DNA from: Candidatus Omnitrophota bacterium | Lineage (GTDB): Bacteria > Omnitrophota > Gorgyraeia > 1-14-0-20-64-10 | DNA length: 44,019 nucleotides | Direction of reading: 5' to 3' | Assembly (NCBI GenBank): GCA_023248095.1 | Contig: JAHFFF010000001.1 | Coordinates: forward strand, 1-44,019 | Shown: positions 5,316 through 31,308 of the stretch, piece after piece | Numbering within the stretch: the stretch's first letter is position 1 | How the letters are laid out: every line of letters starts with the position of its first letter | Made by a program: the position numbers and the translations under genes | The notes under the pieces: model-generated | Databases searched by the model: none | What the model saw: only the letters and a program-made list of their open reading frames with translations | Told to the model about the DNA's origin: nothing

Positions 5316-5319
5316 TTGC

Positions 5320-8502: not shown

Positions 8503-8504
8503 CC

Positions 8505-16851: not shown

Positions 16852-17826
16852 CTAACATGCAGCGGGTGGTTTGTCAACGAGACGCGAGGGATCATCGGTT
16901 TTCCCATTAAAGAACCGAAGGACGTTCCTTGCGCAAGAGAACTCCATGGCAGAACGGGAAGCGCGCGTCAGGGTGGATACGTGTGGCGTGCACAAAACCT
17001 GAGGCAAATCGCGCAGCCTTCCTTGATACGGTTCCTCTTCAAAGACATCCAGTGCTGCCGCAGAGAGCCGCCCTGAGGAGAGGGCCTCTTCCAACCCCCG
17101 CTCATCCACCAGGTAACCTCGGGCCGTGTTGACCAACCGACTGCCCGGTTTCATGGAAAATAACTCCGCGTGTCCTAAGAGGGGTCCCTCCTCTTTCGAG
17201 CGGCTGGCATGAAGGGAAACCAGATCGGACTCAGCCAGAAGTTTCCCCAGATCGCAGAGGGTGATTCCCGCGGGAACCTCCTCGGGGTGCAGCCTCGGAT
17301 CCGCTGCCAGGATTTTGGGGCCGAAGATCTGAAGGTAGCGCCCCACTGCCTGCCCGATTCGACCAAAACCCACCAGCCCAATGGTCCATTCTGAAAGAAG
17401 GAACCCGGTCTGCTTGCGCCATTTCCCCTGCCCCATGTCCCGCAGGTGTTGAGGAAAGTGGCGTGCCAGCGCCAAGATCATTCCTACCGTCATCTGGGCC
17501 ACCGGCTCCACCACTTCCTCGGCGGTGGTAAAAACGGCGACCTTGAGCTTCTGTGCAGTCTCCAGATCGATGGAATCGGTGCCCACGCCGCAGCGGCTGA
17601 TCACCTTCAATCGGGAAAGCGAGCGGAGGAGTTGCGCGTCGTATGGCTCCACGCCGGCCAAAATCGCGTCTGCCTCCTGCAGCAGTGGAAGCATCTCCTC
17701 CCGTTTCAGGCGTCTGCCTAACTCATTTCGGCGGACGTCAAATCCGGCCTCCTGCAGGAGGCGCAGTGGCCGATCGTCTGATTCACAGAACTGTTGAAGC
17801 GCTACAAAGACCGTGGGGCGATTCAT
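16852..17826 (-). CDS. D-isomer-specific 2-hydroxyacid dehydrogenase (phosphoglycerate dehydrogenase-like)
   Basis: IGLVGFGRIGQAVG NAD motif; NTARG; EEPY...CTPHVS catalytic His region. Confidence 0.85.
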   Translation of the reverse strand: MNRPTVFVALQQFCESDDRPLRLLQEAGFDVRRNELGRRLKREEMLPLLQEADAILAGVEPYDAQLLRSLSRLKVISRCGVGTDSIDLETAQKLKVAVFTTAEEVVEPVAQMTVGMILALARHFPQHLRDMGQGKWRKQTGFLLSEWTIGLVGFGRIGQAVGRYLQIFGPKILAADPRLHPEEVPAGITLCDLGKLLAESDLVSLHASRSKEEGPLLGHAELFSMKPGSRLVNTARGYLVDERGLEEALSSGRLSAAALDVFEEEPYQGRLRDLPQVLCTPHVSTLTRASRSAMEFSCARNVLRFFNGKTDDPSRLVDKPPAAC

Positions 17827-18599
17827 CTCAACAGCTGTTGAAGCACTTCCCGCTGAAGGGAATCTCTCTCCAGGAGGGACTCCACTTGCTTCACCTCGTG
17901 GGGCAGATTGATCCCCGGATAGCCTCGAGTAAAGAGCACGCCTTGAAGGATGAAATCGTGCTCCAGGATACGGGACTGATCGACCGATTCACGAACCTCC
18001 ATCGGGGTTCGAGGCAACCTCGAGTATCGCTGGAGGAATTCTTTTTGGTAACCCAGGATTCCGAGCACCTTGCGGACCGGTTCCATGCTGTTGCGGATGC
18101 CATTGGAGAAACAGGAGATATTCCGGGAACAGAACAGGATGCGCCCGGAAACAGAAACAACGCATTTGACGACAGAGTCGTCGGCCAGTTCATCCGGGCC
18201 ATCGAGTGCGGCTACGGCGTTCCAGGCCGGCAGGGAGGGCCTTTCCTTGATGGCGCGCACCATCTTCTCCAAGTCGGCGGGTAGGGCCAGGATCTCATCT
18301 CCCTGAACGTTTACGATGTGAGTGCACTCTAGGGATTCGGCTGCTTCCGCGACGCGGTCGGTCGCAGCCGGGTGAGTCGGCGAAGTCATGATGACCTTAC
18401 CCCCCGCGTCACGGATGACTTGGGCAATCTCCGGATCGCACGTTGCCACCACGACGTCATGAAATCCTTCGCACAACAGGGCCCTGCGGCGGACGTGTTC
18501 CACCATGGGAAGCCCCCGGATCTTGAGCAGCGGTTTGCCCGGGAATCGGCTGGAGGCCATGCGCACGGGAATCACCGCAACGATTCGGACCGCGTCCAT
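17823..18599 (-). CDS. KdsB/NeuA-family cytidylyltransferase (CMP-ulosonic acid synthetase-like)
   Basis: VAVIPVRMASSRFPGKPL, ATDRV (GTDR-like) and VNVQGDEI (VNVQGDEP-like) are KdsB-family signatures. ATGA overlap at 17823-17826. Confidence 0.75.
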   Translation of the reverse strand: MDAVRIVAVIPVRMASSRFPGKPLLKIRGLPMVEHVRRRALLCEGFHDVVVATCDPEIAQVIRDAGGKVIMTSPTHPAATDRVAEAAESLECTHIVNVQGDEILALPADLEKMVRAIKERPSLPAWNAVAALDGPDELADDSVVKCVVSVSGRILFCSRNISCFSNGIRNSMEPVRKVLGILGYQKEFLQRYSRLPRTPMEVRESVDQSRILEHDFILQGVLFTRGYPGINLPHEVKQVESLLERDSLQREVLQQLLR

Positions 18600-18605
18600 G
18601 GGGCG

Positions 18606-19370
18606 TTACTGGGGCAATGTGCCGCAGTCCACGTTGATGCACTGCCCTGTTACCGCGGAAGAGGCGGGTGATGCCAGGAAGTACACCACCTCAGCGACCT
18701 CTTGGGCCGTTGGCAATCGACCCAGAGCGGTCTGAGCCGCCGCAAAGGTGGCCAAATACGTTTCCACCGTTTGTCCATGCGCCGGTGCGGCAGGCTCGGA
18801 GAGAGAGGCCAGGATCTGCTCCGTCTCCACGTAGACTGGGCAAACCGCGTTCACTCGAATTCCGCGAGGCCCCAATTCCTTGGCCAGCGCCTGTGTGATG
18901 CCGTTGACCGCGAACTTCGCGGCGCAGTAGGCGCTGTTATTCGCCGATCCCCGTTTCCCGGCCAGGGAGGAGATGTTGACGATGCTCCCGCCGGGTTTCA
19001 TCACGGCCGCCATAGCGGCGCATCCCCACAGGGTTCCCAACACAGGGGTCTCGATGACCTCTGATACGAACGACTCATCAATGGCATCAATCGGACGCCA
19101 CCGGGACACCCCCGCGCAGTTGACGAAGAGATCGGGGGTCCCGAACTGCTTCAGAACCTCCTCCACGAAATGTCGCACCTGGGTTCGGACCCGGACATCG
19201 ACGGTAAAGTGCACGATCCCCTCCGGCAACGAAGGGTCCCTGGGCGAACGGGAGCAGATCACTACCCGGTCGCCTCTCGCGTGGAAGAGCTCGGCGATGG
19301 AGCGACCGATCCCACGCGTCGCCCCGGTTAGGGCAACCACCCGCTGGGCCGGAGGGGATGGGAGGCTCAT
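18606..19370 (-). CDS. Short-chain dehydrogenase/reductase (FabG-like)
   Basis: VVALTGATRGIGRSIA, NCAG, catalytic YCAAKFAV. Confidence 0.8.
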   Translation of the reverse strand: MSLPSPPAQRVVALTGATRGIGRSIAELFHARGDRVVICSRSPRDPSLPEGIVHFTVDVRVRTQVRHFVEEVLKQFGTPDLFVNCAGVSRWRPIDAIDESFVSEVIETPVLGTLWGCAAMAAVMKPGGSIVNISSLAGKRGSANNSAYCAAKFAVNGITQALAKELGPRGIRVNAVCPVYVETEQILASLSEPAAPAHGQTVETYLATFAAAQTALGRLPTAQEVAEVVYFLASPASSAVTGQCINVDCGTLPQ

Positions 19371-20998
19371 CGAACCTTTCGAAAGGAGCCGTCAGGATCC
19401 TCCAATCGGTAATGCAACACCCCTACCCCCTCCGAGGTGAGGAGGAAATCAAGAGGGTGCTCGGTGAGGGTGAATGTCGCTTGGGGATCGGTCACCGGCG
19501 TCCCTTCGAACCGGTACGGTTTCGGATCGATCCCCAGATGTTTCAGAAGGGTTGGCAGGACATCGATCTGACGGAGAACAGGACGGAACACCCTGCCCTC
19601 TTTCTGTCCCGGCCGTTTGAGCGCGAAGAAAACGCTCACCAAATCCGGGGGGGCCGGGATCGCCTCTTCCCCCTTGACATTTCGCGCACCGGCGTCGTAT
19701 CCGGTGTCCGATGTCACCACGATGAGAGCGCGGTCGTAGATCCCTTCCTGCTTTAGGAATTCCAGGAAAGAACCCAGCTCTCGATCAAAGATGGCTAGGT
19801 TCTTCCGAGCGCCTTCTAGCTCCTTCGAATACTTCTCGGCGGAAAACTGCTTGAAACCGGAATACTTCACATCGGGACCATCGCTGATCCAGTTGTGCAT
19901 GATGTATAAATTGGGCGCCGTGCCTTCCTTTTTCAAGACCTCCTTGAGGGCCTCGAACTGCTTCCTACCGGAAACGTGTTGAAGCTGCTCTCCAGGTTTC
20001 AGGGACGCCGACTCCCGGGCCCACAGGTCGAACCACGGGTTGAAATGCCAGCCCAGCAGGGTGAGCCTGACTTCCAGCGGGTCGGGGATGATCGGCAAGA
20101 GATAGGTCTTGTACCAGCCGACAATGATGTCCAAGCCCCGGTGGGTCTTGCCAACGGCGCGTAGGCAGATGTTACGCCTCGGATTGCAATAGTCGGTCAG
20201 GATGTCCAGGACTAGGAAGACCCGACGCTTGGCCCCCACGATGTCCCTGAGATTCGGGTATCGTGTCCAGTTCCGTTCACTGGAGAGGAGCCGTCCGGAG
20301 TACAGCGTTTTGAGCGAGTAGACCGTCGCCGTGCAGTTCGCGTAGGTCCGGGGATAATAATCGGCTCCCGACACAAAGCGGGTCAGGTTCGGGAATCGAT
20401 CCAGGATTTTCCCCTGCCCATCCGTCAGGTAGGAGTTGCACAACTTCTCAAAGGTGAAGAAGAAGACGGGGGCTGTCCCCTCAGAGCTGGTCGGAAGGAA
20501 GGTCGGTTGATAGGAACCCCCTTGCCCGGAGGGGGCCGCCTGGAAGGCGAAGGTGAGAAAGACCGCCAGGCTGAGGACGGCACAGCTCTTCAGGATGCGA
20601 TCGATGCCCTTCCGGAAGCGATACAGGGAGACCGCCAGCAGCAGGAAGATGCCCAGGAGGGCGAACTTCCGCCACTCGGCTTTCAGAAAATAGAACTGCA
20701 GGATATGAAAGTTGAGCTGCATGGAAAAGAGGAAGCTGACAACCACAGAAAAAAAGAGGGAACTCAGCCGTTCGGAGATGGCAGCGAACGCCCAAAAGAA
20801 AAGGCCCACCAACAGGGGGATCCCCACAAAGGTCAGGACACAGAAGAGGCAGAACGTCGGCCAATCCCAGCTTCCCAGGCTCAAGGACTGCGGATCCTCG
20901 AGAATCATCGTTGCCAATGGAATTTGGAACAGCAAAGTGACGGCTCCCCACGCCGAAAAGAAGAGACCCCACTCAGTAGATTTTTTGAAGGATATCAC
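19367..20998 (-). CDS. Membrane-anchored alkaline-phosphatase/sulfatase-fold transferase (LtaS/EptA/OpgB-like architecture)
   Basis: About 5 N-terminal TM helices, then a soluble domain with VFFFTFEKL..., ANCTATVYSLKTLYSGR at the position of the sulfatase signature, and ALIVVTSDTGY (SDHG-like). GTG start at 20998; ATGA overlap at its 3' end (19367-19370). Confidence 0.65.
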   Translation of the reverse strand: MISFKKSTEWGLFFSAWGAVTLLFQIPLATMILEDPQSLSLGSWDWPTFCLFCVLTFVGIPLLVGLFFWAFAAISERLSSLFFSVVVSFLFSMQLNFHILQFYFLKAEWRKFALLGIFLLLAVSLYRFRKGIDRILKSCAVLSLAVFLTFAFQAAPSGQGGSYQPTFLPTSSEGTAPVFFFTFEKLCNSYLTDGQGKILDRFPNLTRFVSGADYYPRTYANCTATVYSLKTLYSGRLLSSERNWTRYPNLRDIVGAKRRVFLVLDILTDYCNPRRNICLRAVGKTHRGLDIIVGWYKTYLLPIIPDPLEVRLTLLGWHFNPWFDLWARESASLKPGEQLQHVSGRKQFEALKEVLKKEGTAPNLYIMHNWISDGPDVKYSGFKQFSAEKYSKELEGARKNLAIFDRELGSFLEFLKQEGIYDRALIVVTSDTGYDAGARNVKGEEAIPAPPDLVSVFFALKRPGQKEGRVFRPVLRQIDVLPTLLKHLGIDPKPYRFEGTPVTDPQATFTLTEHPLDFLLTSEGVGVLHYRLEDPDGSFRKVR

Positions 20999-22100
20999 GT
21001 AACACCTCCTGTGTGACTTCCCGAGGGTTGTTCACTACCCGGTCCGACCGGAACCCGTTTTCGATGACGTTATTGATCCCCTGCTGGTCAAGGCCAAGTT
21101 TCCGAAGGGACCGTTCCAAACCGGCTTCATCCATCAACCCCTCTACCCGGCGAGCGGCCTCCTCCCAGGAGGAGATACCGAGGGTCTTCAGGAGGTGGGC
21201 CCCTCGCTCGGGTTCTAAGACAGGGCCGTTGTACCGTATAAAGGAAGGCAGCGTGAGGGCGCAGGCATGCCCATGGGGGATCTCGTAGAAGGTGGTGAGC
21301 GGATAGGAAACCGCATGGACTGCCGTGGTGCGGGTCTGCGTGATCGCCAGCCCCGCTTCAGTACTGGCCAGGGACATCGCAAACCGGGCCTCCCGTTGCG
21401 AGGGTTCTCTCAGAACCGTGGGAAGATTTTCAAGAATGAGTGCGATGGCGCGTAGGGAGTGGGTTTCAGAAAACGGTGTATGGTGAACAGACCAAAAGGA
21501 TTCAATGGCCTGGGAAAGGGCATCCAATCCACTGCAAGCGGTCACGTATTTTGGCATGGAGTAGGTCAGCAAGGGATCGATTAAGGCGATCTCTGGAAAA
21601 AGCCAGGGATGGGTCAGGCTAATCTTCTGGTGGGACCGAGTCTGAAGCGAGGCGTAGGGGGTGACTTCACTTCCAGTTCCCGCCGTTGTGGGAACGGCGA
21701 TCAAGGGCAAACCTCGGTGTTGGAACTCCCTGCGTTTCTCCACGTAATCTTCCAAGGCGACGTCCTCTTGCGTCAGCAGGATCCGAATGGCCTTTGCACA
21801 GTCCAGTACGCTTCCGCCTCCAATGCCCACCACCAAGTCGAATTTCCTTCCCCGCAGAGTCCGCCACATCTCTTGAATGAAGGTCACACTGGGGTTGTGC
21901 TCCACAGGATCCGATTCCTCCAGGCAGAACCCGCCCAGCCCTTCTTTGAGACGCCGATGTCCCACGGAACTCCGGAAGGAGGACTTGCCTAGAAGGAGGA
22001 GGACCTTCTTGGGCCGGAAAGAGGCGACCATCTCGGGCAGCCGATCTAGCGCGCCGTCGGCGATGATTCGCTGGGTAGGATTCCAGTACCCCCAATTCAT
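20973..22100 (-). CDS. Group III iron-containing alcohol dehydrogenase; by context a phosphonoacetaldehyde reductase candidate (PhpC/FomC/Pdh-like)
   Basis: VVGIGGGSVLDCAKAI and PTTAGTGSEVT are Fe-ADH family motifs. ATG 22100 lies 5 nt after the PepM stop. Confidence 0.75.
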   Translation of the reverse strand: MNWGYWNPTQRIIADGALDRLPEMVASFRPKKVLLLLGKSSFRSSVGHRRLKEGLGGFCLEESDPVEHNPSVTFIQEMWRTLRGRKFDLVVGIGGGSVLDCAKAIRILLTQEDVALEDYVEKRREFQHRGLPLIAVPTTAGTGSEVTPYASLQTRSHQKISLTHPWLFPEIALIDPLLTYSMPKYVTACSGLDALSQAIESFWSVHHTPFSETHSLRAIALILENLPTVLREPSQREARFAMSLASTEAGLAITQTRTTAVHAVSYPLTTFYEIPHGHACALTLPSFIRYNGPVLEPERGAHLLKTLGISSWEEAARRVEGLMDEAGLERSLRKLGLDQQGINNVIENGFRSDRVVNNPREVTQEVLRDILQKIY

Positions 22101-22105
22101 CTGAT

Positions 22106-23818
22106 CTAGGCCGCTGAAGGAGCTTGGACTCCAGCTAGGGTCGAGGCCGACCTTCGGAAATGGGCCTCGGCGCGTTCGACATCGGAACGGGAATGAACCT
22201 CAGACCAACCGTGCTCAATCTCCATACCGAACACTTGAAAATTACGATCCAACAGGTACCGGAGCAAATCGGTGAAGTCAGCTTCCGCTACACTCGAGGC
22301 CTCATAGAAGGGTTTGCCTTGATACTCACCCTGAGCTTGCTCCCAGGCACGCTTTAAGACATCCAACCCCTTTTCTCTGAGGAAGGCCATCCCGATAAAT
22401 TCATGGGTCGGTTGGGCTCCCAACAGGCGTTTTCCAATGTGCCGAATGGGTTTGTAGAGGTCGAGTTCCAAACGCCGCGGGGAACCTGGCGGTAACGCCG
22501 GATCATCGACGGCGACCAAATCAAGCGCCTTCTTACGCGTGGGGAGGGTCTGGTAAGCCCGGTCGATCACCAGCGTGATGGGGTGCGGGCTTCCCAGGAG
22601 CCGGGCCAGGATTTGCCGGTCGAAGAGTATGTCGGAGTAGAGGATAACGGTCTTCCCTTTGAGTTGCTCGCCGGCAAACAGGATGGAATGGGCGCAGTGC
22701 GTCTTGCGGTAATCTGGGTTGTACAAGACACGGGCCCCCTCCGCTCGGAGCTTCTCATGCAGATGCCCTCCCACCACAACAACATCGGTGATCCCCACCG
22801 AGTGAAGGGCGGTCAATTGCCGTTCCAGGAGAGTTTGCCCGCCCACCTCCAGCATGCACAAGGGTTTGTCCTTTAACAGTTCCTTCAAATCCGGTTGGAA
22901 CTGATGATCCCGTGCGGCAGGGATCACCGCTTGCACGTTGGCCCCATCGGAGAATCTCCTCTCATCCTCCCGCATAGCACTCATCCCTTGCAACTCGAAC
23001 ACCTCCCGGAGAGAGGCGACCTTCTCCTCAATATCCGCCGTCGTTCCCATCCTTTGAATGGTTTCCAGCGTCGTCTCGATGGCGCGAATGGAGGCCCGGA
23101 GCCCATGGTTGGCGTAGATCACCATCTTAAAGCCCCCTCTCTCCAGCTCGGCTGCCGTGACCCGATAGTAGGTCGTGGGGATGGCGACCAAGGGAATGTT
23201 CCGATCCCACCGCCTTGCAAAGGAAAATACCTCTTCGGGCTCGGACGCCTTCGAGTGAATGACAATCCCATCCGCTCCTGCCTCCGCATAGGCGGCGGCG
23301 CGCCTCAACGCCTCCTCCATTCCCCATCCCGCGATCAGGGCCTCCACTCGGGCGAATACCATCAGATGAGGATTGCGCTGAGCCTCCTTGGCGGCCCGGA
23401 TCCTCCCTACGAATTCCTCCACCGAGGCCAACGCCTGCCGTCCCGGGATGAAGCTGTTCACCTTCGGGAACTGTTTGTCTTCAATCACAATGGCCGCCAG
23501 CCCCGCGGCCTCGTATTTCTTGACCATGTGCTTGACGTTGGAAGCGTTCCCGTATCCCGTATCACAGTCGCAGATGACTGGCAATGCAGTCGCCTCGTTG
23601 ATGGCCCGCGCCGCTTCCAGGTTCTCCGTCATGGTCAGGATGTTGGCATCGGGTAGGCCGTAGGCGGTGGAGATCTCCAGGCCACTGGCCCAAACCCCAT
23701 CGAAGCCGGAACGCTCAATGAGCTTTGCCCCCAGCCCATTGTGGGCCCCCACCACCTTCAGGATCCCCTTGGACCGGAAGGCCTCCCGCATCCGTGCGGC
23801 CTTGTCGCTCAAGGGCAA
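22106..23818 (-). CDS. pepM: Phosphoenolpyruvate mutase (N-terminal ~290 aa) fused to a divergent LicC/PntC-like nucleotidyltransferase domain (C-terminal ~275 aa)
   Basis: GAHNGLGAKL, CDCDTGYG and the PepM-diagnostic EDKQFPKVNS (nt 23453-23482) are present. The C-terminal domain is paralogous to the NTase domain of 24497..25708 (EFIGM, GKPF, GW.E blocks). Start is TTG 23818 with GGAGGAGG just upstream; an alternative ATG lies at 23791. Confidence 0.9.
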   Translation of the reverse strand: MPLSDKAARMREAFRSKGILKVVGAHNGLGAKLIERSGFDGVWASGLEISTAYGLPDANILTMTENLEAARAINEATALPVICDCDTGYGNASNVKHMVKKYEAAGLAAIVIEDKQFPKVNSFIPGRQALASVEEFVGRIRAAKEAQRNPHLMVFARVEALIAGWGMEEALRRAAAYAEAGADGIVIHSKASEPEEVFSFARRWDRNIPLVAIPTTYYRVTAAELERGGFKMVIYANHGLRASIRAIETTLETIQRMGTTADIEEKVASLREVFELQGMSAMREDERRFSDGANVQAVIPAARDHQFQPDLKELLKDKPLCMLEVGGQTLLERQLTALHSVGITDVVVVGGHLHEKLRAEGARVLYNPDYRKTHCAHSILFAGEQLKGKTVILYSDILFDRQILARLLGSPHPITLVIDRAYQTLPTRKKALDLVAVDDPALPPGSPRRLELDLYKPIRHIGKRLLGAQPTHEFIGMAFLREKGLDVLKRAWEQAQGEYQGKPFYEASSVAEADFTDLLRYLLDRNFQVFGMEIEHGWSEVHSRSDVERAEAHFRRSASTLAGVQAPSAA

Positions 23819-24537
23819 GCCTCCTCCGATGATTTTGGATAGTAATCCTGCTCGTCCGAGACAATGCGGCTAAGGTTTCTCCCGCCCAGTAGGGCCAACT
23901 CCTGACGCGCATCACCCGTCAGGTGCTGCGCGAACGTAATGGCCAGGATCCTGCCTGGGTTCTTTGCATCCGGGGAATAAAATCCGTGTGGGACAAAACC
24001 TGGGATAAGCCAGGAGTCTCCCTTCTCAAAGACCTCCTCCCAAACCTTCCCCTCCCACTCCCAAAGGTAGGCTACAGGGCCCCCATCCAGGACCTGGGTG
24101 TACTGATGGAAGAAATGGCCCCGATTGAGCACCACCTCTTCTCTTCGATGAAGATGAAGGAGCAATTCCACCGGCTTGATGTTGGGTAAAACCGGTGTCA
24201 TCACCCTTTCCCAGTAGGTGTACTGCAGCCGACCTGCCCTTTCCTGGTCAAACCGCCGGGCGGAGCGGCCGCGGAGGAATTTCATCCCCCGATCCAAGTC
24301 ATTCTCCAGAGGCAGCAGGTCCCGGACGCTCACGGAAAATTGCCTGGCCAGCAGCTCCAATTCCCCCCAGGTCGGTTGACCCTCTCCCCGTTCCAAGAAA
24401 CTCAGGCGTTCACTGGAGATCCCCGTATCGCGGGAGACGGTTTCTAAGGAATGTTTGACCTCGTTGCGCCAGGCATGGATGAGGCTACCGTAGTTTTTAA
24501 ACGCGGCGGTTGGAACGGACGTTTGAAGTTGCGACAT
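23809..24537 (-). CDS. HTH(XRE-like)+cupin protein, HppE/HEPD/MPnS-superfamily-like non-haem iron enzyme candidate
   Basis: 242 aa. N-terminal XRE-type HTH (HSLETVSRDTGISSERLSFLERGE). Cupin motif 1 NRGHFFHQ (N138, H141, Q145) and cupin motif 2 GDSWLIPGFVPHGF (H184). ATG 24537 is preceded by AAGGGAG 8 nt upstream. Confidence 0.65.
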   Translation of the reverse strand: MSQLQTSVPTAAFKNYGSLIHAWRNEVKHSLETVSRDTGISSERLSFLERGEGQPTWGELELLARQFSVSVRDLLPLENDLDRGMKFLRGRSARRFDQERAGRLQYTYWERVMTPVLPNIKPVELLLHLHRREEVVLNRGHFFHQYTQVLDGGPVAYLWEWEGKVWEEVFEKGDSWLIPGFVPHGFYSPDAKNPGRILAITFAQHLTGDARQELALLGGRNLSRIVSDEQDYYPKSSEEACP

Positions 24538-25708
24538 GCAGAGGACTCCCTTTTTGTTGGAACACCGTGACAGCCTTCTTGAAGTCTTCGATGGTGTCGA
24601 TCTCTTTCCAGCCGGACCCGATGATCTCGCAATGGATGGGGACTCCCAGATCCGCCATTTCCTGGAAGAGATCGGTGAGATACGCCTTTTGAAACTGGTC
24701 GGCCCTCTGGAAGGGCCCGCCGTCGTAAAGAGCCTTGGCCCGATGGTAATGTCGCCGCAGGATCTCGCAACCCCTACGGGTCAGCTTGCACATCCCAATG
24801 AATTCCCCGTGCACCTCTTCCTTCTCGGCGGCAATCTTTCCGATCTTGATCACCTCGTTGTTGCTGTTAAAGATGACGTTCTCCGCCTCTTCAATCGGGT
24901 GGTCCTTCCGGCCAAGATAATAGTCCTTCCAGTCGATATCCACCCCGATCGCGATGTCCTTCTCGCATCGAAGAAGCCTCTTGACCACCGCCTCTTCATA
25001 CCAGATGTCCGTATAGGAGATGATAACCTCCCCATCCAGCTCTTCCTCTGCGCAGAAGAGGGAGGCCAGCATGTTGGTGGTCTGGGGGGTTGGGTTCTCA
25101 TAGTATCTTACCCCGGGGTTGTTGATCTTCTCCGCCTTATATCCCCGAACTACGGAGATCTCGCCGATTCTGCAGGAGCGAAGGGTTTCGAGCTGGGTCT
25201 GTAAGAGGGTCTTCCCGTTGAGAACGATGGCCATGCACTTCGGAAAATCCTCTGTCAGGGGCCTTAAGCGTGAACCTAGCCCAGCTGCCAGCAGAACAGC
25301 CTTCACCTCAACGGAGCCAATCCTCTTGGTCAAGTCTCGAATGCGCTGGGCTGAGGCCTGGTGCTGTTGGAGGGCCCTGAGAAGATTCACCGATTCGGGA
25401 TGGGCCTTCACGATGCCGGGCACATCCGGCGGGATTCGGTCAGGTTCTAGGCCGGCAAGATCAAACAGGTCCTCCTCCGCCGCGCCCAAGGCAGCGGCCA
25501 GCTTCTGAATGACTCCCTTCGAGGGTGGTTTGCGGTGCAGGCTTTCAATATCGCTCAAATAGGAGCTTGTAACGCCCACCCGTTGGGCTAGCCCTCTTAA
25601 GGAAAGGCCCGTCTTCTGGCGGAGGGTTTTGATCTCCACCCCAAAGGGCTTCCTAGAGGAGTTTCGAGTCTTTGATCCGTTGGTGTTTCGGGGGGTATCC
25701 CTGCGCAA
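24497..25708 (-). CDS. XRE-type HTH domain fused to a LicC/PntC-like nucleotidyltransferase (canonical G-loop)
   Basis: HTH: IKTLRQKTGLSLRGLAQRVGVTSSYLSDIE. NTase: KAVLLAAGLGSRLRPLTEDFPKCM (nt 25259-25294). The track start at 25708 is TTG. GTG 25639 (VEIKTLRQ...), with AGGAAG upstream, is an equally plausible start. Confidence 0.75.
   Translation of the reverse strand: MRRDTPRNTNGSKTRNSSRKPFGVEIKTLRQKTGLSLRGLAQRVGVTSSYLSDIESLHRKPPSKGVIQKLAAALGAAEEDLFDLAGLEPDRIPPDVPGIVKAHPESVNLLRALQQHQASAQRIRDLTKRIGSVEVKAVLLAAGLGSRLRPLTEDFPKCMAIVLNGKTLLQTQLETLRSCRIGEISVVRGYKAEKINNPGVRYYENPTPQTTNMLASLFCAEEELDGEVIISYTDIWYEEAVVKRLLRCEKDIAIGVDIDWKDYYLGRKDHPIEEAENVIFNSNNEVIKIGKIAAEKEEVHGEFIGMCKLTRRGCEILRRHYHRAKALYDGGPFQRADQFQKAYLTDLFQEMADLGVPIHCEIIGSGWKEIDTIEDFKKAVTVFQQKGSPLHVATSNVRSNRRV
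24546..24550 (-). promoter_or_regulatory. Shine-Dalgarno GGGAG for the HTH-cupin gene, embedded in the 3' end of the upstream NTase gene
   Basis: Plus-strand CTCCC at 24546-24550, 8 nt upstream of ATG 24537. Confidence 0.5.
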
Positions 25709-25715
25709 TGTTCAC

Positions 25716-25729
25716 CTATCAGCTATCAG
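25716..25729. repeat. Tandem direct 7-mer CTATCAG CTATCAG (plus strand) inside the largest non-coding gap of the window
   Basis: Read directly at 25716-25722 and 25723-25729. It lies between the TagF-like stop (25749) and either candidate start of the HTH-NTase gene (25708 or 25639). Confidence 0.5.
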
Positions 25730-25748
25730 TTTACTAGGAGGCAGCTTA

Positions 25749-26873
25749 TCAAACTGTGAGACACAGTTCAAGGAGGAACTGGCCCCCGACCCTTCCCGCC
25801 GCTCCCGGGTGGTAAACCGATTGAGTGCGTTCCTCAAGGATTCGGTCCCGATAGGCGCTTTGATTCTCCAGCAGGTCGCGGACCTCGCTGCCCATTTGAC
25901 CGCTTCTCTCCACAAGGACGGTTTTCCCGATCCGGTCCCGAAGGCGAACCTCCAGGGGGATGATCCCAAGCTCCTCATAGCGAGGGTTGTGGACCTTACG
26001 CGGCACCTCCATAAACAGGACTGGCCTTTCGGTCCCGAAGGCGTATTCCAAGGCGATGCCTGACCAGTCGGTGATCAGGACATCGGATTCGAGAAGGGTT
26101 TGATCCGTCAGCGGTCCGAAATCCCACTTGACCTTGGAATCCTCAGGCCATTTCTGCCTGAGTTGGGCCAACCTCTTGGGATAACGCTTGACCCACTCCG
26201 GGTGGGGCCGAATGACCACGGTAAAATCATCCTTCACCAGGGCGCGGACCACTTCGGAGACACAGGATTCCAGGATGTTGTCCGCCCCCCAGGAGGGGGC
26301 GATGAGAACCCTCCTACCAGCTGGGGCCAAGGAGTCCGATCGCATCTGAAGAAGGCGGTCTAGGGAGGGATAGCCGACCTCCAGGAGCTGCTTGGCAGGG
26401 GTCTGATAGAGCTGCTCGGAACGGCGCAGTTCCGACAGGTGGTGAGGGCCGACGCAGAAGATGACGTCGTAGTGATCGAACGCTCCGAAGCGATAAATCA
26501 TGTGTGTGCTGACCATGGCGTGGAAAATGTAGACGTGCCGGGTACCCCAGACCGATCGGCGGATACTGTAGCGATTCAAATCCGGCAGGGTCATCACGAG
26601 AACCTTCGCATCCAAAAAGAGGATGACGAAGGGGAGCAGGTGTTTGAAGTAGAAACTCCTCAGGCGATCGGGTGCCTGCGAAAGGATGGGGTCGTCCGGC
26701 TCCGAGGTGATGTAGCAAATCGTCAAAGAGGGCTGCCTCAAGAGCTCGCGGATGAATCCCTCGAAATAGGGGAGGTAGCCCCTGCCCTCCGTATAAAAGA
26801 CGATCTGTCTTTCTTCTTTGCGCAGGCCAACGAAGCGTTTCAGATCAACGCATTCGCGAAGAAAGGAGCGCAT
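25749..26873 (-). CDS. TagB/TagF-family CDP-alcohol phosphotransferase (Glyphos_transf-like)
   Basis: Start set to ATG 26873 (MRSFLRE...), 13 nt after the upstream small-ORF stop. VLIAPSWG, VVIRPHP and VLITDWSGIALEYAF correspond to the TagF YAPTWR / HP / LITDYSS blocks. Confidence 0.75.
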   Translation of the reverse strand: MRSFLRECVDLKRFVGLRKEERQIVFYTEGRGYLPYFEGFIRELLRQPSLTICYITSEPDDPILSQAPDRLRSFYFKHLLPFVILFLDAKVLVMTLPDLNRYSIRRSVWGTRHVYIFHAMVSTHMIYRFGAFDHYDVIFCVGPHHLSELRRSEQLYQTPAKQLLEVGYPSLDRLLQMRSDSLAPAGRRVLIAPSWGADNILESCVSEVVRALVKDDFTVVIRPHPEWVKRYPKRLAQLRQKWPEDSKVKWDFGPLTDQTLLESDVLITDWSGIALEYAFGTERPVLFMEVPRKVHNPRYEELGIIPLEVRLRDRIGKTVLVERSGQMGSEVRDLLENQSAYRDRILEERTQSVYHPGAAGRVGGQFLLELCLTV

Positions 26874-26886
26874 CCTCCCGCACTCT

Positions 26887-27030
26887 CTACTTCTTTCGAG
26901 TCCAAAAGGATTTAATCGAGTACAAGATCGATCGGATTCCGATGAAGATCGACCCAATCCCGACAACGATCAGCTGAATGAGAAGACCGCCCGTTCCTGG
27001 GTTCATGTAGGCCAGTGGCATCTGGATCAT
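26887..27030 (-). CDS. Small single-TM peptide (47 aa), function unknown
   Basis: MIQMPLAYMNPGTGGLLIQLIVVGIGSIFIGIRSILYSIKSFWTRKK. GGAGG (27038-27042) lies 7 nt upstream of ATG 27030, and the ORF sits between two tightly packed genes. It has a hydrophobic core and a basic C-terminus. Confidence 0.45.
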   Translation of the reverse strand: MIQMPLAYMNPGTGGLLIQLIVVGIGSIFIGIRSILYSIKSFWTRKK

Positions 27031-27037
27031 GGTTTTT

Positions 27038-27042
27038 CCTCC
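27038..27042 (-). promoter_or_regulatory. Shine-Dalgarno GGAGG for the 47-aa small ORF
   Basis: Plus-strand CCTCC at 27038-27042, 7 nt upstream of ATG 27030. It overlaps the HAD gene stop codon. Confidence 0.5.
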
Positions 27043-27713
27043 TAGGGTTGAATCCAAAAGGCATAATCTGGAATCCAAAACAACGATTTCTTGCCGGAGT
27101 TATTGGCGGCGTCCCCGATGCCGATGAACTGGCAACCGGCTTGCTCCGCAGCCTGGGCATCCTCCTCCTGATCGCCGAAGAAGATCAGCTCCTCCTTTGA
27201 AAGCAGGAATTCGGAGCGAAGGCCCTGCAGCCATTGGGCCTTATGGACGGGGGCCCCTTGGATGAAGCGGAAATAAGCGGCCCATCCCCGCTGGGTTAAG
27301 ATCTGCGTGAGGACCTCCTGGGGAGTGGAGGAAAGCAGCCCGATGCAATGAGTCCGAGAAACGGAACGAAGGAATTCTTCGGCATAGGGGATCCCGGATG
27401 CGGCAACAATCTTCTGCGTCGTAGCAGCCTCGAAACGATTGTGAAGCTCCTGCTCGACCTGCGGGGTCAGGGGGCGTTCGAGGATTCGATCATAGACGTA
27501 CCGAAACTTCTCCCGTCGAGGTGTGTGATGGTTCGCCCAGCAGTAAGCGAGGATTTCCTGTTTGCGCTCCGGGAAGTTGGCGAAACACACCTCGAAGGCC
27601 GCTCGCTTGATGGAGTTGGAATCCACCAGGGTTCCGTCAAAGTCGAAGATCAGTGCGCGGGCAGCTTGAACCAGTTCCCGTACCGTTGTTTGCTCAGCGG
27701 GACCAGATTTCAT
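27042..27713 (-). CDS. HAD-superfamily phosphatase (PGP/beta-PGM-like subfamily)
   Basis: LIFDFDGTLVDSN (motif I, DxDGT), ...GLLSSTP... (motif II), ...FFGDQEEDAQAA (motif IV). Confidence 0.8.
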   Translation of the reverse strand: MKSGPAEQTTVRELVQAARALIFDFDGTLVDSNSIKRAAFEVCFANFPERKQEILAYCWANHHTPRREKFRYVYDRILERPLTPQVEQELHNRFEAATTQKIVAASGIPYAEEFLRSVSRTHCIGLLSSTPQEVLTQILTQRGWAAYFRFIQGAPVHKAQWLQGLRSEFLLSKEELIFFGDQEEDAQAAEQAGCQFIGIGDAANNSGKKSLFWIPDYAFWIQP

Positions 27714-28452
27714 TCGACTTCCTACCCGTGGGATCTGCCCAGACTCGCCGGAGCCCCGCCTGCTCTAACAACAACGCGCATCGCCGCCGGAGCTCGGGTT
27801 GGGATAATTCAAGGATCAAGGAGCGGAGGGTGGCCGACCGCAAGGTTTCCGAAGCCCCTTCCAGAATGGCCGGCTCGGTTCCATCCACATCGATCTTCAA
27901 ACAATTCGGAAGGCGCTGCGTCTCGTGGCAGAACCGGTCCAGCGTGGTGACGGCAATCCCTTCCCGGCCGATGACCGCAGCCTTATGAGCCGTCTGGAGG
28001 AGGGAGGTGGGAGATTCCGTATGCAGAGCCGCTCCCGGAGTCCAATCTTGGATGTGCAGTCGGCTCAAGCCCACCCGGTTCCCGAGGGCCACGGAATAAA
28101 CCTCTACCCGATCCTGGAGGGCGTTGTGCAACAGGTTCTGTCGGAGGAGAAAGAGATTGGAATATTCCGGTTCAAAGGCAATCACCTGAGCCCTCGGGTG
28201 ACGCAGGGCCGCATAGATGGAATAGGAGCCGATGTTGGCGCCGATGTCGAAAAAGAGGTCTTCCGCCTGCACCCAACGGTCGATCCAGTCGAGAGTCTCC
28301 GGCTCCTTTACATTGTAGGTACGCCAACGGTAGTACGTCACGGGATTGTCCGATTGAAGGGTGAAGGTCAGGCCGCGGGCGAAAACCTTCCGCCGGGGAG
28401 CGAAGGCCGACAGGGCGGCCCAGCGTAGGCGCGACAAACGGTTCCTAACCAC
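27694..28452 (-). CDS. FkbM-family methyltransferase
   Basis: FFDIGANIGSYSIYAA is the FkbM signature. The track ORF (to 28881) has a 143-aa N-terminal extension that fully overlaps the upstream aldolase. In-frame GTG 28452 gives a 252-aa protein overlapping the aldolase stop by 8 nt. Confidence 0.65.
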   Translation of the reverse strand: MVRNRLSRLRWAALSAFAPRRKVFARGLTFTLQSDNPVTYYRWRTYNVKEPETLDWIDRWVQAEDLFFDIGANIGSYSIYAALRHPRAQVIAFEPEYSNLFLLRQNLLHNALQDRVEVYSVALGNRVGLSRLHIQDWTPGAALHTESPTSLLQTAHKAAVIGREGIAVTTLDRFCHETQRLPNCLKIDVDGTEPAILEGASETLRSATLRSLILELSQPELRRRCALLLEQAGLRRVWADPTGRKSNEIWSR

Positions 28453-29248
28453 GACGGGGCCCCCGGGTAAATCCCCGCATGCGCTGGGCCCACTTCCAGA
28501 GGGTGAACACGTCCGAACCCAGCACGATAAACGTATAGCCAGCCCGGAAGGCGGCTCGAACCTGGGTGGCCGTTGGGTCAACCAATTGCGTCCCGCATGC
28601 CTTTCCCCGAGCGCGACAGACTCGGCTGACCGCGCGACAGGCACTCTGCACCAAGGGATGGGAAAGTTGTCCGGGGATGCCGAGGCTCCCCGAGAGGTCG
28701 TAGGGGCCGACCATGGCCCCGTCGACCGCCGGGTGGGAAACCAGCGCCTCCACTGCCTCAACGCCCTCTTGGGATTCAATCTGTATAAGGAAGATAGACC
28801 GGCGGTTCCAACCCGACACGTATCGGTCGAAATCAAACCCATAGCCCTGCGCTCGAGCCACCCCATAGGAGCGCTTTCCAACCGGTGGATAAAGGAGGCT
28901 GTTCGCGATCTCTTCTACCTGAGCGATGTGGGTGACATTCGGAACGATGATCCCGTCGGCACCCGAGTCCAGGAGCCGGCGGATGGGGGAACCGTCATGG
29001 GAAGGCAGGCGGGGAAGGCACGGGACGCCGTGGGACTGAGAAGCGGCGATGATCCTCTGTGCCTGCTCCTGGTTGATCGTGCTGTGTTCCAGGTCGATCC
29101 CGATGAAGTCAACCTCCATGCCGGTCAATATCTCCGTGATGGAGGGATGGGCCAAGGAGGTCCATCCGGCAAAGAGCGGCTTTCGTTGCCGAAGCTTCCT
29201 TTTTAGTTGTGCGGCTGCAGTGTCGATGGAAGCAGTGGTTGGGTCCAT
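28445..29248 (-). CDS. HpcH/HpaI-family class II (pyruvate-dependent) aldolase
   Basis: FAGWTSLAHPSITEILTGMEVDFIGIDLEHS...LLDSGADGIIVPNV...IQIESQEGVEAVE...VDGAMVGPYDLS: family-typical TIM-barrel motifs including the metal-binding E/D positions. Confidence 0.75.
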   Translation of the reverse strand: MDPTTASIDTAAAQLKRKLRQRKPLFAGWTSLAHPSITEILTGMEVDFIGIDLEHSTINQEQAQRIIAASQSHGVPCLPRLPSHDGSPIRRLLDSGADGIIVPNVTHIAQVEEIANSLLYPPVGKRSYGVARAQGYGFDFDRYVSGWNRRSIFLIQIESQEGVEAVEALVSHPAVDGAMVGPYDLSGSLGIPGQLSHPLVQSACRAVSRVCRARGKACGTQLVDPTATQVRAAFRAGYTFIVLGSDVFTLWKWAQRMRGFTRGPRRG

Positions 29249-31298: not shown

Positions 31299-31308
31299 CA
31301 GGGGTCTC

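Follow-up and report, generated by a model that had tools for sequence, protein, structure and literature searches.

The equilibrium of PepM needs a coupled driving step, as the standard thermodynamic argument goes, and the locus described here raises the question of what drives the reaction when pepM stands without a gene for phosphonopyruvate decarboxylase (Ppd). About 40 co-directional minus-strand genes tiled the window, the whole stretch of 44,019 nucleotides that was analyzed. A phosphonate block of six genes (19367-26873), common to the window and loci L006, L007, and L008, was inserted inside a sugar-acid cassette. The block and the micro-ORF next to it were as follows.

19367..20998, minus strand: LtaS-like membrane protein, N-terminal TM segments and an alkaline-phosphatase-superfamily domain (PF00884, C-terminal part)
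20973..22100, minus strand: Fe-dependent alcohol dehydrogenase, Fe-ADH (PF00465 and PF25137)
22106..23812, minus strand: PepM with a C-terminal MobA/LicC-type nucleotidyltransferase fusion, 568 aa (PF13714 and PF12804)
23809..24537, minus strand: MpnS/HepD homologue, single-repeat HTH and cupin, 242 aa (PDB matches, motif alignment)
24497..25639, minus strand: stand-alone HTH and NTP_transf_3 nucleotidyltransferase, a second PntC-like protein (PF13560/PF01381 and PF12804/PF00483)
25749..26873, minus strand: TagF-like protein of the CDP-glycerol glycerophosphotransferase family (PF04464 at 6.2e-10)
26887..27030, minus strand: conserved micro-ORF, 47 aa, single TM, between the HAD and TagF-like genes (called in L001)

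PepM and the search for a decarboxylase

The Pfam scan matched the PepM protein to PF13714 at 1.1e-57 and also to PF12804. The protein carried VIEDKQFPKVNSF, which is the EDKxxxxxNS motif (EDKQFPKVNS), and passed the TIGR02320 model (323.8 bits; cut-off 319.55). By motif and models the PepM of the window is genuine, as the first-pass annotation had proposed, and it is predicted to convert PEP to phosphonopyruvate. The nucleotidyltransferase domain fused to it presumably makes a CMP-phosphonate.

The same annotation had reported that the window holds no ThDP enzyme or GDG motif and no aminotransferase, homocitrate-synthase-like, or radical SAM gene, and our searches agreed on every count. Pfam scans of all of the approximately 40 window genes gave no match to TPP_enzyme_N/M/C, nor to aminotransferase, HMGL-like/homocitrate synthase, or radical SAM families. 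When 11 Ppd seeds from related loci were compared by tblastn with the window and the flanks of its parent contig, the best E value was 0.027, and no GDG-x(24-27)-NN motif was present in the six frames. The parent contig (ENA ERZ27276474 k141_5624430) was 65,045 bp long, and no ThDP gene was found in the approximately 60 kb inspected (record positions 4783 to 64241). The stop codon of pepM was followed after 5 nt by the ATG of the Fe-ADH gene, so this spacer leaves no room for a ppd remnant.

No decarboxylase-like protein was found among the remaining window proteins, and those without a Pfam match either were membrane proteins or belonged to the cassette and were also present where PepM is absent. 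The Ppd step could still be performed by a decarboxylase that went unrecognized, being non-ThDP or highly divergent and encoded inside or outside the cluster, and the soluble proteins at 34641-36236, 42030-43991, 15627-16343, and 39806-41125, with no or weak family assignment, would be the places to look. We regard this as improbable: the 531-aa protein is a cassette member that is also present in PepM-free loci, and none of the four genes lies inside the block shared with L006, L007, and L008. We are aware of no precedent for an alpha-keto phosphonate being decarboxylated without ThDP.

Absence of a cis ppd in the IPAAR clade

The lack of a nearby ppd is shared by a whole clade. In the monophyletic PepM-nucleotidyltransferase clade that includes the window, cis ppd was missing from the retrieved flanks of 13/13 loci, in several gene contexts, whereas ppd lay directly downstream of PepM in 11 of the 12 loci of the sister clade. 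The hallmark of the ppd-less clade was Arg in place of Gly in the signature loop of the nucleotidyltransferase domain, which reads IPAAR and not IPAAG. The PepM-nucleotidyltransferase gene was the only recognizable phosphonate gene in nine of the 13 IPAAR loci, and these nine solo genes occupied differing positions in glycan or LPS-type clusters.

Capture of phosphonopyruvate independently of Ppd is a possible alternative, and these solo genes suggest one form of it, in which the IPAAR domain cytidylylates phosphonopyruvate (PEP + CTP -> CMP-phosphonopyruvate + PPi). Pyrophosphate release, not decarboxylation, would then pull the PepM equilibrium, and the solo fusion would be a self-sufficient glycan-decorating module. 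The Gly-to-Arg change fits this idea, being the only residue that separates the clade from its Ppd-linked sisters, lying in the nucleotide-binding loop, and recurring in about 40 of the 120 nearest homologue clusters. However, the fused domain was otherwise indistinguishable from those of the sisters, the Arg position could not be mapped reliably onto LicC, and the ppd-less fusions of L025, L029, L030, L062, and L064 kept the canonical Gly. The Fe-ADH and the 2-HEP-type oxygenase of the window would also go unexplained, as they would still need a decarboxylated substrate. We know of no description of CMP-phosphonopyruvate, and we consider this route unlikely.

The best reading, which we put forward tentatively, is that a decarboxylase encoded elsewhere in the genome acts in trans. 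Of the options raised by the first-pass annotation, a distant ppd is the most economical, and a bypass of the decarboxylase step by chemistry not yet described is less likely. Phosphonate genes lie scattered in genomes of these phyla. Pairs of PepM-nucleotidyltransferase and Ppd stood alone beside LeuRS and ComEC, without a phosphonoacetaldehyde-using enzyme (L011, L012, L014, L016, L021-L023, and L028), L076 had an AEP transaminase and no Ppd, and the Ppd of L050 and L068 was 6-7 kb away from PepM. On the other side, PepM-Ppd adjacency was near-universal in the sister clade, even where all other pathway genes were absent, so if Ppd is required, the two genes should have stayed together. No Ppd was located in the examined DNA of this organism or in the retrieved flanks of any relative in the IPAAR clade. 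The long IPAAR-clade contigs carried none of the 120 best Ppd relatives, a low-power test, and no second PepM locus from the seven IPAAR-clade MAGs appeared among the best 80 genome hits.

The oxygenase and the Fe-ADH

The two enzymes expected to act after decarboxylation point to a conventional pathway. The oxygenase was closest in the PDB to MpnS (6b9s, 1.9e-37) and HepD (6b9r, 6.9e-34), and far from HppE (7.9e-9 or weaker). Its GHFFHQ...VPHGF motifs aligned with H148, Q152, and H190 of MpnS, which form a His/Gln/His iron site, and equivalents of the residues K28, R102, Y110, and N145 that bind 2-hydroxyethylphosphonate (2-HEP) were retained in the alignment. The protein is thus predicted to be an oxygenase that uses Fe(II) and O2, with 2-HEP as its substrate. 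It had earlier been labeled HppE-like, and it does resemble the fosfomycin epoxidase in its single HTH and cupin and its similar size, but the metal site of HppE is His/Glu/His, and the gap in similarity rules the label out. The suggested role of phosphonolactate as substrate for an HppE-like enzyme goes back to this misassigned family.

The top NCBIfam match of the Fe-ADH was TIGR03405 (Phn_Fe-ADH) at 257.5 bits, under the cut-off of 423.7. The ADHs encoded after Ppd in L019, L020, and L026 scored 236-246 bits on this model and were 50-52% identical to the window protein, and a homologous Fe-ADH accompanied Ppd in 12 other loci of the 80-locus set. From these relationships the Fe-ADH is predicted to be a phosphonoacetaldehyde reductase that yields 2-HEP. 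A related cluster in the Candidatus Omnitrophota MAG GCA_023247055.1 (L019/L087) carried the genes in the order nucleotidyltransferase, single-repeat oxygenase, PepM-nucleotidyltransferase, Ppd, Fe-ADH, and the window had the same order minus Ppd. The identities were 46% for the nucleotidyltransferase, 66% for the oxygenase, with identical active-site motifs, 57% for PepM-nucleotidyltransferase, and 50% for the Fe-ADH, which gave the same NCBIfam profile as its L019 counterpart. The Ppd between PepM and ADH in L019 was bona fide (TIGR03297, 363.8 bits, cut-off 312.5). Because the oxygenase and Fe-ADH of the window are orthologous to genes of this cluster, the pathway most likely runs via phosphonoacetaldehyde and 2-HEP. 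In the ppd-less subclade, ADH and oxygenase (70-78% identity) were as conserved as PepM itself (66-82%), a level that indicates selection on both enzymes and a continuing need for their substrate.

The sugar-acid cassette

Two further enzymes of the window had been proposed as replacements for Ppd, at coordinates that proved correct: a D-2-hydroxyacid dehydrogenase, and an HpcH/HpaI aldolase that would capture phosphonopyruvate or phosphonoacetaldehyde. Both belong to a conserved cassette of nine genes (GFO-MT-SIS-TAL-HpcH-HAD-SDR-KdsB-2Hacid).

16852..17826, minus strand: D-2-hydroxyacid dehydrogenase, last cassette gene, directly after the KdsB-like gene (PF02826 and PF00389)
17823..18599, minus strand: KdsB-type CMP-ulosonic-acid synthetase (PF02348 at 2e-35; NF003952 at 205.8 bits, cut-off 193)
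27042..33625, minus strand: cassette remainder upstream of the phosphonate block (Pfam, gene calls), with the next six lines
27042-27713, minus strand: HAD phosphatase (Pfam)
between HAD and TAL/FSA, minus strand: FkbM methyltransferase, HpcH, GT1, and methyltransferase genes (Pfam)
28445..29248, minus strand: HpcH/HpaI class II aldolase, core cassette gene (PF03328 at 1.4e-27)
31309-32028, minus strand: TAL/FSA (Pfam)
32025-32657, minus strand: SIS_2 (Pfam)
32654-33625, minus strand: methyltransferase (Pfam)
33622-34644, just upstream of this part: GFO/IDH/MocA (Pfam)

The gene order was the same in L086, L170, and the metagenomic loci. The dehydrogenase scored under all NCBIfam cut-offs, and the aldolase under those of the HpaI and GarL models. 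Syntenic orthologues of the dehydrogenase followed KdsB in 17 HpcH-anchored metagenomic loci, and at least 11 distant metagenomic copies of the cassette (dehydrogenase 38-46% identity) had no PepM in the retrieved flanks, the shorter of which measured 7.5-10.7 kb in nine of these loci. Among 37 metagenomic loci of at least 8 kb, the aldolase had SDR as a neighbor in 36 and KdsB in 34, and PepM within the retrieved flanks in only two. Since both enzymes are fixed members of a cassette that is found without PepM, both proposals are weakened. The best explanation is that the dehydrogenase and aldolase serve the CMP-activated sugar-acid pathway of the host operon, not the phosphonate pathway.

Reduction of phosphonopyruvate to phosphonolactate, by the dehydrogenase or the Fe-ADH, would provide a driving step, with phosphonolactate then serving as the oxygenase substrate or being itself activated and transferred. 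VlpB-type 2-Hacid_dh_C enzymes are an accepted PepM driver (PMC8942020, PMC12871164), and a dehydrogenase of the same fold lies 4.3 kb from pepM. It was also near PepM in L013, L017, L090, and L168, directly upstream in L090, and clade PepM was mostly embedded in cassette-bearing clusters. Besides the PepM-free cassettes, however, no dehydrogenase homologue was found within 10 kb of PepM in L007, L009, L010, and L172, or on the shorter contigs L006, L008, and L174, with L008 reaching only about 4 kb past PepM. The window also had no vlpCDE-like genes, and its oxygenase and ADH match a Ppd-containing cluster with active-site motifs unchanged. We judge reductive capture to be rather unlikely.

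An aldol reaction is more doubtful still. Phosphonopyruvate, as a pyruvate substitute or as the electrophile, would be built by the aldolase into a phosphono-ulosonic acid for activation by the KdsB-like enzyme. HpcH, HAD, and KdsB did occur with clade PepM in the window, L007, L008, L013, L090, L165/L168, and L170, and ring closure of the sugar could help to pull the reaction. Nevertheless, the aldolase sequence did not separate PepM-linked from PepM-free copies, neither aldolase nor dehydrogenase was near PepM in the clade members L009, L010, L172, and L174, and the ADH and oxygenase would be left unaccounted for.

The proposed pathway

Under the favored reading of a decarboxylase in trans, the setting would be a very long surface-glycan operon of an uncultured Omnitrophota/Planctomycetota-like bacterium into which the phosphonate block was inserted. 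PepM would form phosphonopyruvate, and Ppd or another ThDP decarboxylase encoded outside the approximately 60 kb examined would convert it to phosphonoacetaldehyde. The Fe-ADH, judging by orthology, would reduce this to 2-HEP, and the oxygenase, judging by its iron and substrate ligands, would use O2 to cleave the C-C bond of 2-HEP, giving methylphosphonate or hydroxymethylphosphonate. The fused nucleotidyltransferase, the stand-alone one, or both would then provide activation with CMP; the stand-alone enzyme was kept in L006-L008, and its L019 orthologue had no HTH. Finally, the TagF-like and LtaS-like enzymes would act in transfer onto the glycan. The TagF-like gene, which also immediately precedes the block in L006, L007, and L008, encodes a candidate transferase of the phosphonyl group from CMP-phosphonate to the glycan. 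The LtaS-like protein, with a hydrophobic N-terminus, PDB matches to LtaS (2w5q, 4.3e-7) and a phosphonate monoester hydrolase (4.9e-5), and a homologue of 48% identity in the solo-PepM locus L170, is a candidate extracytoplasmic phospho(no)transferase. Micro-ORF homologues of 46 and 50 aa occupied the same position in L002 and L170.

Comparison with known systems

Beyond Ppd, L019/L087 differs from the window in its IPAAG loop and in having no TagF-like or LtaS-like gene and lying outside the sugar-acid cassette. The N. maritimus cluster of Metcalf et al. 2012 reportedly comprises PepM, Ppd, Pdh, and MpnS with nucleotidyltransferase and sulfatase-like genes. The window resembles it in PepM, Fe-ADH, an MpnS/HepD-family oxygenase, nucleotidyltransferase(s), an alkaline-phosphatase-superfamily ("sulfatase") protein, and the glycan context. 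It differs in having no cis Ppd, in the fusion of PepM to a nucleotidyltransferase, in the TagF-like transferase, and in an oxygenase of one HTH-cupin repeat (242 aa) instead of two (about 450 aa). The methylphosphonate/2-HEP phosphonoglycan pathway of Nitrosopumilus maritimus is summarized in PMC8931226 and PMC12619172.

In valinophos biosynthesis, VlpB reduces phosphonopyruvate to phosphonolactate (PMC8942020, PMC12871164). The window likewise combines a PF02826 dehydrogenase and a ppd-less pepM in one neighborhood, but it has no vlpCDE-like set, unrelated genes separate the two, and the dehydrogenase comes from a cassette that exists without PepM. A rule-based classifier would assign the window to the valinophos/VlpB type.

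Among Ppm enzymes about 33% carry a PF12804 fusion, the commonest type for PepM (Rice et al. 2019, PMC6697681). The window shares with the Ppm-nucleotidyltransferase fusions, PntC, and the fosfomycin-pathway enzyme Fom1 this fusion and a second nucleotidyltransferase nearby. The characterized members of this group use AEP or HEP generated via Ppd, whereas the window and the whole IPAAR clade have no Ppd alongside and carry Arg in place of the signature Gly.

A genuine PepM and no Ppd in the window

About 40 genes, all on the minus strand, tiled the window, including the following:

2328-5462, minus strand, GT1-GT1-DUF218 fusion
16852-17826, minus strand, 2-hydroxyacid dehydrogenase
17823-18599, minus strand, KdsB-like gene, which passes the KdsB model
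20973-22100, minus strand, Fe-ADH
22106-23812, minus strand, PepM-NTP (PEP mutase fused to a nucleotidyltransferase)
23809-24537, minus strand, oxygenase
24497-25639, minus strand, HTH-NTP
25749-26873, minus strand, TagF-like gene
within 19367-26873, minus strand, LtaS-like "sulfatase" of 543 aa with a hydrophobic N-terminus
28445-29248, minus strand, HpcH aldolase
34641-36236, minus strand, 531-aa protein

The PepM sequence matched PF13714 (the PEP_mutase/ICL TIM-barrel fold) at 1.1e-57 over residues 16-254 and carried the EDKxxxxxNS catalytic motif (VIEDKQFPKVNSF, core EDKQFPKVNS), the criterion that separates PepM from other ICL-family enzymes (PMC6697681, PMC8931226). The TIGR02320 equivalog scored 323.8 bits, above its cut-off of 319.55, and the phosphonopyruvate hydrolase model TIGR02321 scored lower, at 274.8 bits against a cut-off of 374.4. 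By its fold, its motif and its equivalog score, the window protein is a genuine PepM. PepM by itself cannot build up product, and each phosphonate pathway therefore needs a coupled trapping step; to our knowledge, only about four such steps have been described.

The first-pass annotation had reported that the thiamine-dependent phosphonopyruvate decarboxylase (Ppd) was missing from the window, and our searches agreed. Pfam scans of all ~40 genes revealed no ThDP-enzyme domain (PF02775/PF02776), tblastn of 11 Ppd queries (full-length and beta-subunit sequences from related loci) against the window and the fetched contig flanks gave a best E of 0.027, and six-frame translation of the window and flanks gave no GDG-x(24-27)-NN ThDP-binding motif. 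On the parent contig (ENA ERZ27276474 k141_5624430, 65,045 bp, of which record position 14439 is window position 1), the TPP family was absent from the gene calls between record positions 4783 and 64241. The PepM stop codon TAG was followed by ATCAG and then by the Fe-ADH ATG, so that nothing was hidden at the usual ppd site. The reported absence of an aminotransferase, an HMGL-like/homocitrate synthase and a radical SAM enzyme was also borne out by the Pfam scans of the ~40 window genes.

Two window proteins were rejected as substitutes. The 531-aa protein had a size fitting a hidden ThDP enzyme but showed neither the GDG..NN motif nor a PDB match, and it also occurred in loci without PepM in the fetched flanks. 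The LtaS-like "sulfatase" was a membrane-anchored alkaline-phosphatase-superfamily transferase.

A PepM-NTP clade without an adjacent Ppd

Relatives of the fusion were compared in 80 genome loci (L-numbers); clusters of the ORFs from these loci were matched to the window proteins and to Ppd seeds. Ppd was present in ~50 of the 80 loci, usually starting 1.4-2.2 kb past the PepM start, that is, directly downstream. The closest relatives of the window PepM, in L006 (82% identity), L007 (69%) and L008 (66%), were all without Ppd, and these loci shared the block of the window, consisting of TagF-like, HTH-NTP, oxygenase (not in L006), PepM-NTP, Fe-ADH and LtaS-like genes. In a neighbour-joining tree of the fusions, the window, L006-L010, L013, L015 and L017 formed one clade, in which L015, on a short contig, was left unscored for ppd. 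A single alignment position split this clade from its sisters: the signature loop of the nucleotidyltransferase has Arg in the clade (IPAAR) and Gly in the sisters (IPAAG). The canonical (L/P)AAG loop was not kept but read IPAAR(D/H) in the window (~22900-22920, PepM-NTP residue ~301) and 12 relatives, and of the 120 closest clusters of homologues (at 90% identity), ~40 had an Arg-type loop. The mapping of the substitution on LicC was ambiguous, as the LicC alignment begins past the loop.

Further members of the clade were inspected (L090/91, L168/169, L170/171, L172 and L174). The flanks lacked ppd in 13 of 13 IPAAR loci, whereas it lay directly downstream in 11 of 12 sister IPAAG loci (Fisher p = 2.7e-6, for a contrast that is phylogenetically one event). 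PepM-NTP was the sole recognisable phosphonate gene in 9 of the 13 IPAAR loci, at varied sites in glycan/LPS-type clusters. A second contig of metagenome ERZ27276474 (L174) carried a 78%-identical IPAAR-type PepM-NTP, with no ADH or Ppd in the 8 kb downstream and with upstream sequence of 0.55 kb only. GT87, GT1-DUF218 and ABC transporter genes followed directly downstream of it and resembled the left part of the window; the GT1-GT1-DUF218 fusion of the window (~1,000 aa) was kept in L168 and L174.

The downstream enzymes were compared with those of L019/L087, a related cluster (57% identity) containing NTP, oxygenase, PepM-NTP, Ppd and Fe-ADH, in which the L019 Ppd scored 363.8 bits with TIGR03297 (cut-off 312.5). 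The window and L019 oxygenases were 66% identical, with identical active-site stretches. The top family of the window Fe-ADH was TIGR03405 (phosphonate-associated Fe-ADH) at 257.5 bits, below the cut-off of 423.7, and the ADHs of Ppd-containing sister clusters likewise stayed below it at 236-246 bits. The Fe-ADH was 50-52% identical to the ADHs directly after Ppd in L019, L020 and L026, with an NCBIfam profile identical in kind. The downstream enzymes of the window are thus orthologous to enzymes working after Ppd, and, since they were conserved like PepM within the ppd-less subclade, they are not decaying.

The oxygenase and the other enzymes of the block

The oxygenase (242 aa) had been labelled HppE-like, which did not hold. 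It matched the solved structures of MpnS (6b9s) at 1.9e-37 and HepD (6b9r) at 6.9e-34, whereas matches to HppE were weaker (7.9e-9 to 1.6e-6), and the His/Glu/His triad had Gln in place of Glu. The GHFFHQ ... VPHGF stretches aligned with H148, Q152 and H190 of MpnS (His/Gln/His), and equivalents of MpnS K28, R102, Y110 and N145 were kept in the alignment; all of these are reportedly iron- and 2-HEP-binding residues (Born et al. 2017). At the product-determinant position Ile184 (Phe162/Ile184 in MpnS, Tyr/Gly in HepD), the window oxygenase had Ile, as in MpnS. The second determinant (Phe162/Tyr163) read Ala in the alignment with MpnS ("GPVAY") and Tyr in that with HepD ("GPVNY"), and with this ambiguity the predicted product is either methylphosphonate or hydroxymethylphosphonate.

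The window enzyme consisted of one HTH-cupin unit, which aligned to both repeats of MpnS and of HepD, and lacked the tandem repeat of these ~450-aa chains. The superfamily was represented by 232 relatives among the 1.84 billion cluster representatives searched; the nearest two-repeat relative was 41% identical, and few other ~240-aa forms were present among the 232. With its single repeat, the window oxygenase is a rare form within the family of methylphosphonate-making enzymes, methylphosphonate being an aerobic methane precursor. Single-repeat homologues of ~240 aa, half as long as the characterised enzymes, were also seen in L007, L008, L019, L024 and L056.

PF12804 matched the fused nucleotidyltransferase domain at 5.4e-11 and the stand-alone enzyme at 3.9e-14, and LicC (1jyk) matched the PntC/LicC-type domain at 4.1e-5. 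In the stand-alone enzyme, HTH-NTP, an XRE-type HTH was fused to the N-terminus of the nucleotidyltransferase; the adjoining oxygenase also began HTH-like, and the L019 orthologue of HTH-NTP had no HTH. A conserved hydrophobic micro-ORF of 46-50 aa (consensus ..LAYMNPGTGSLLLQL..) was found in three divergent loci (window 26887-27030, L002 6797-6937 and L170 17581-17733), flanked by the HAD gene on one side and by the TagF-like/unknown and LtaS-like genes on the other. B12-binding radical SAM enzymes were located 3.8 kb downstream of a ppd-less PepM-NTP in L007/L002 (L002 15518-17059), just beyond the block, and directly downstream of ppd-less PepM-NTP in two Scalindua loci (L029 11669-13315 and 3753-5216). 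The enzymes of L002 and L029 might be methyltransferases of the Fom3/PhpK-like kind, with CMP-phosphonates as substrates.

Proposed route and the possible location of Ppd

In the best-supported route, which combines the observed family assignments with chemical steps predicted from them, PepM would convert PEP to phosphonopyruvate, a decarboxylase supplied in trans would yield phosphonoacetaldehyde, and the Fe-ADH would reduce this to 2-HEP. The single-repeat oxygenase would then produce methyl- or hydroxymethyl-phosphonate, which may be activated with CMP by the fused and/or the stand-alone nucleotidyltransferase; the TagF-like and LtaS-like enzymes would then transfer it to the glycan. Alternatively, the fused Arg-bearing domain might cytidylylate phosphonopyruvate directly. 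This would account for the loci in which PepM-NTP stands alone but leaves the ADH and oxygenase of the window unexplained.

A search with a profile built from 13 Ppd sequences of Omnitrophota/Planctomycetota gave 7,722 relatives. Among the best 120 of these, none was assigned to a long IPAAR-clade contig, in what was a low-power test; of the 39 located on contigs of 10 kb or longer, 27 were assigned to contigs with an IPAAG-type PepM. One Ppd contig without such an assignment (L176) contained an ordinary PepM-NTP and Ppd pair at 8337-11104, which adjoined LeuRS and ComEC and was accompanied by neither an ADH nor a transaminase. The pair-only pattern was also found in L011, L012, L014, L016, L021-L023 and L028. 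In these pair-only sister loci, no transaminase, ADH or other phosphonoacetaldehyde user was present within 10 kb, and in L050 and L068 Ppd was 6-7 kb away from PepM. These lineages thus often have their phosphonate genes dispersed, and it is accordingly plausible that the Ppd of the window organism is encoded in trans. A Woesearchaeota MAG (L076) offered an independent example of a post-Ppd enzyme that lacks a Ppd in cis: an AEP-type transaminase was located 1.8 kb downstream of PepM-NTP, and Ppd was absent over a range of 10 kb. Against a trans-encoded Ppd, the sisters keep PepM and Ppd adjacent even where all other genes are dispersed, and the IPAAR clade never shows this adjacency. A decarboxylase of an unrecognised type would be a rival source of the same activity.

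A putative sugar-acid cassette and the proposed phosphonopyruvate users

Two further outlets for phosphonopyruvate had been proposed in the first-pass annotation, namely reduction to phosphonolactate by the 2-hydroxyacid dehydrogenase and aldol capture by the HpcH aldolase. L086 (= L013) and L170 carried the host operon of the window with PepM-NTP inserted elsewhere. This operon ran from ABC transporter, RmlD-like, GT2, 531-aa protein, GFO, methyltransferase, SIS and TAL genes to methyltransferase, GT1, HpcH, HAD, SDR, KdsB and 2-hydroxyacid dehydrogenase genes. The window had its six-gene phosphonate block inserted between HAD and SDR.

An aldolase-anchored metagenome scan gave 80 loci, 37 of them of at least 8 kb. 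Among these 37, the aldolase was accompanied by SDR in 36, KdsB in 34, HAD in 19, TAL in 18, and the 2-hydroxyacid dehydrogenase and SIS in 17 each, whereas PepM was in the fetched flanks of 2. One locus (L165) overlapped L168 at 100% identity, where PepM was 13.5 kb from the aldolase; "PepM-free" calls are therefore unreliable among the closest relatives, and evidence for PepM-free cassettes was taken from distant loci only. At least 11 such loci had a compact cassette with the dehydrogenase directly after KdsB, and their fetched flanks (shorter side 7.5-10.7 kb in 9) contained neither PepM nor Ppd. Identity with the window was 54-60% for the aldolase and 38-46% for the dehydrogenase, and PepM-linked and PepM-free copies were intermixed in the trees of both. 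Conversely, no dehydrogenase homologue was found within 10 kb of PepM in L007, L009, L010 and L172, or anywhere on the contigs of L006, L008 and L174, which were shorter. The PepM-free cassettes, together with PepM loci lacking the dehydrogenase, argue that the two enzymes have conserved, phosphonate-independent roles.

The window dehydrogenase did have the D-2-hydroxyacid dehydrogenase fold of a VlpB-type phosphonopyruvate reductase (PF02826, 8.4e-48). Its orthologues were not confined to pepM neighbourhoods, and Pfam scans of the window revealed no kinase or GAPDH-like gene of a vlpCDE-like set leading to DHPPA. The proposal for the aldolase was weakened by the company it keeps and by its tree. 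Nothing supports the recruitment of either enzyme for phosphonopyruvate, which is improbable; most simply, they would help to make a CMP-activated 3-deoxy-ulosonic-type sugar acid.

The cassette itself spanned 16852-19370 and 27042-34644 of the window and contained genes for GFO/MocA, methyltransferase, SIS_2, TAL/FSA, HpcH aldolase, HAD phosphatase, SDR, KdsB-type cytidylyltransferase and D-2-hydroxyacid dehydrogenase. L086, L170, L090 and many of L088-L167 also had the cassette, and its distribution among metagenomes from groundwater and the sea was wide. It may represent an undescribed route to a CMP-activated ulosonic-type sugar acid, in which a class II pyruvate aldolase replaces the KdsA/NeuB-type synthase; our literature search found no description of an HpcH-KdsB cassette. 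The layout suggests that the window and flanks form one very long glycan operon: ~60 kb consisted of unbroken same-strand genes with many overlapping stop/start junctions, and promoter and terminator scans gave no signal beyond shuffled controls.

Phosphonolactate might also be formed by the Fe-ADH. More generally, the IPAAR clade might make C-P compounds without any Ppd, trapping phosphonopyruvate directly and using the oxygenase on the product; CMP-phosphonopyruvate from the fused domain, or phosphonolactate from the Fe-ADH or dehydrogenase, would be examples. We consider this improbable compared with a Ppd in trans. If true, it would be a new early branch point of phosphonate synthesis, widespread in the surface glycans of Omnitrophota and Planctomycetota.

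Comparison with known systems

In uncultured bacteria of groundwater and sediment, the IPAAR fusions form a coherent clade that is maintained by selection. The trapping enzyme is never beside pepM in this clade, whereas in the sisters it almost always is. One possibility is that pathway genes can be dispersed, which would call for caution with genome-mining rules that assign clusters to classes from the adjoining genes; alternatively, a new trapping chemistry may exist. Neighbourhoods of ppm without Ppd have already been recorded as "pre-Ppd other" by Li and Horsman (PMC8942020), who classed any PF02826 neighbour as VlpB-like. The window illustrates how this rule can mislead, since the presence of a 2-hydroxyacid dehydrogenase close to pepM may lead to a false "VlpB" call. 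The PepM fusion of the window is of the common Ppm-PF12804 type (Rice et al., PMC6697681), and the working scheme of the window resembles the Nitrosopumilus-type methylphosphonate/HEP phosphonoglycan pathway. The window differs from this known system in having no cis Ppd, which is a trait of the clade, a single-repeat oxygenase, the IPAAR loop and the TagF-like/LtaS-like pair.
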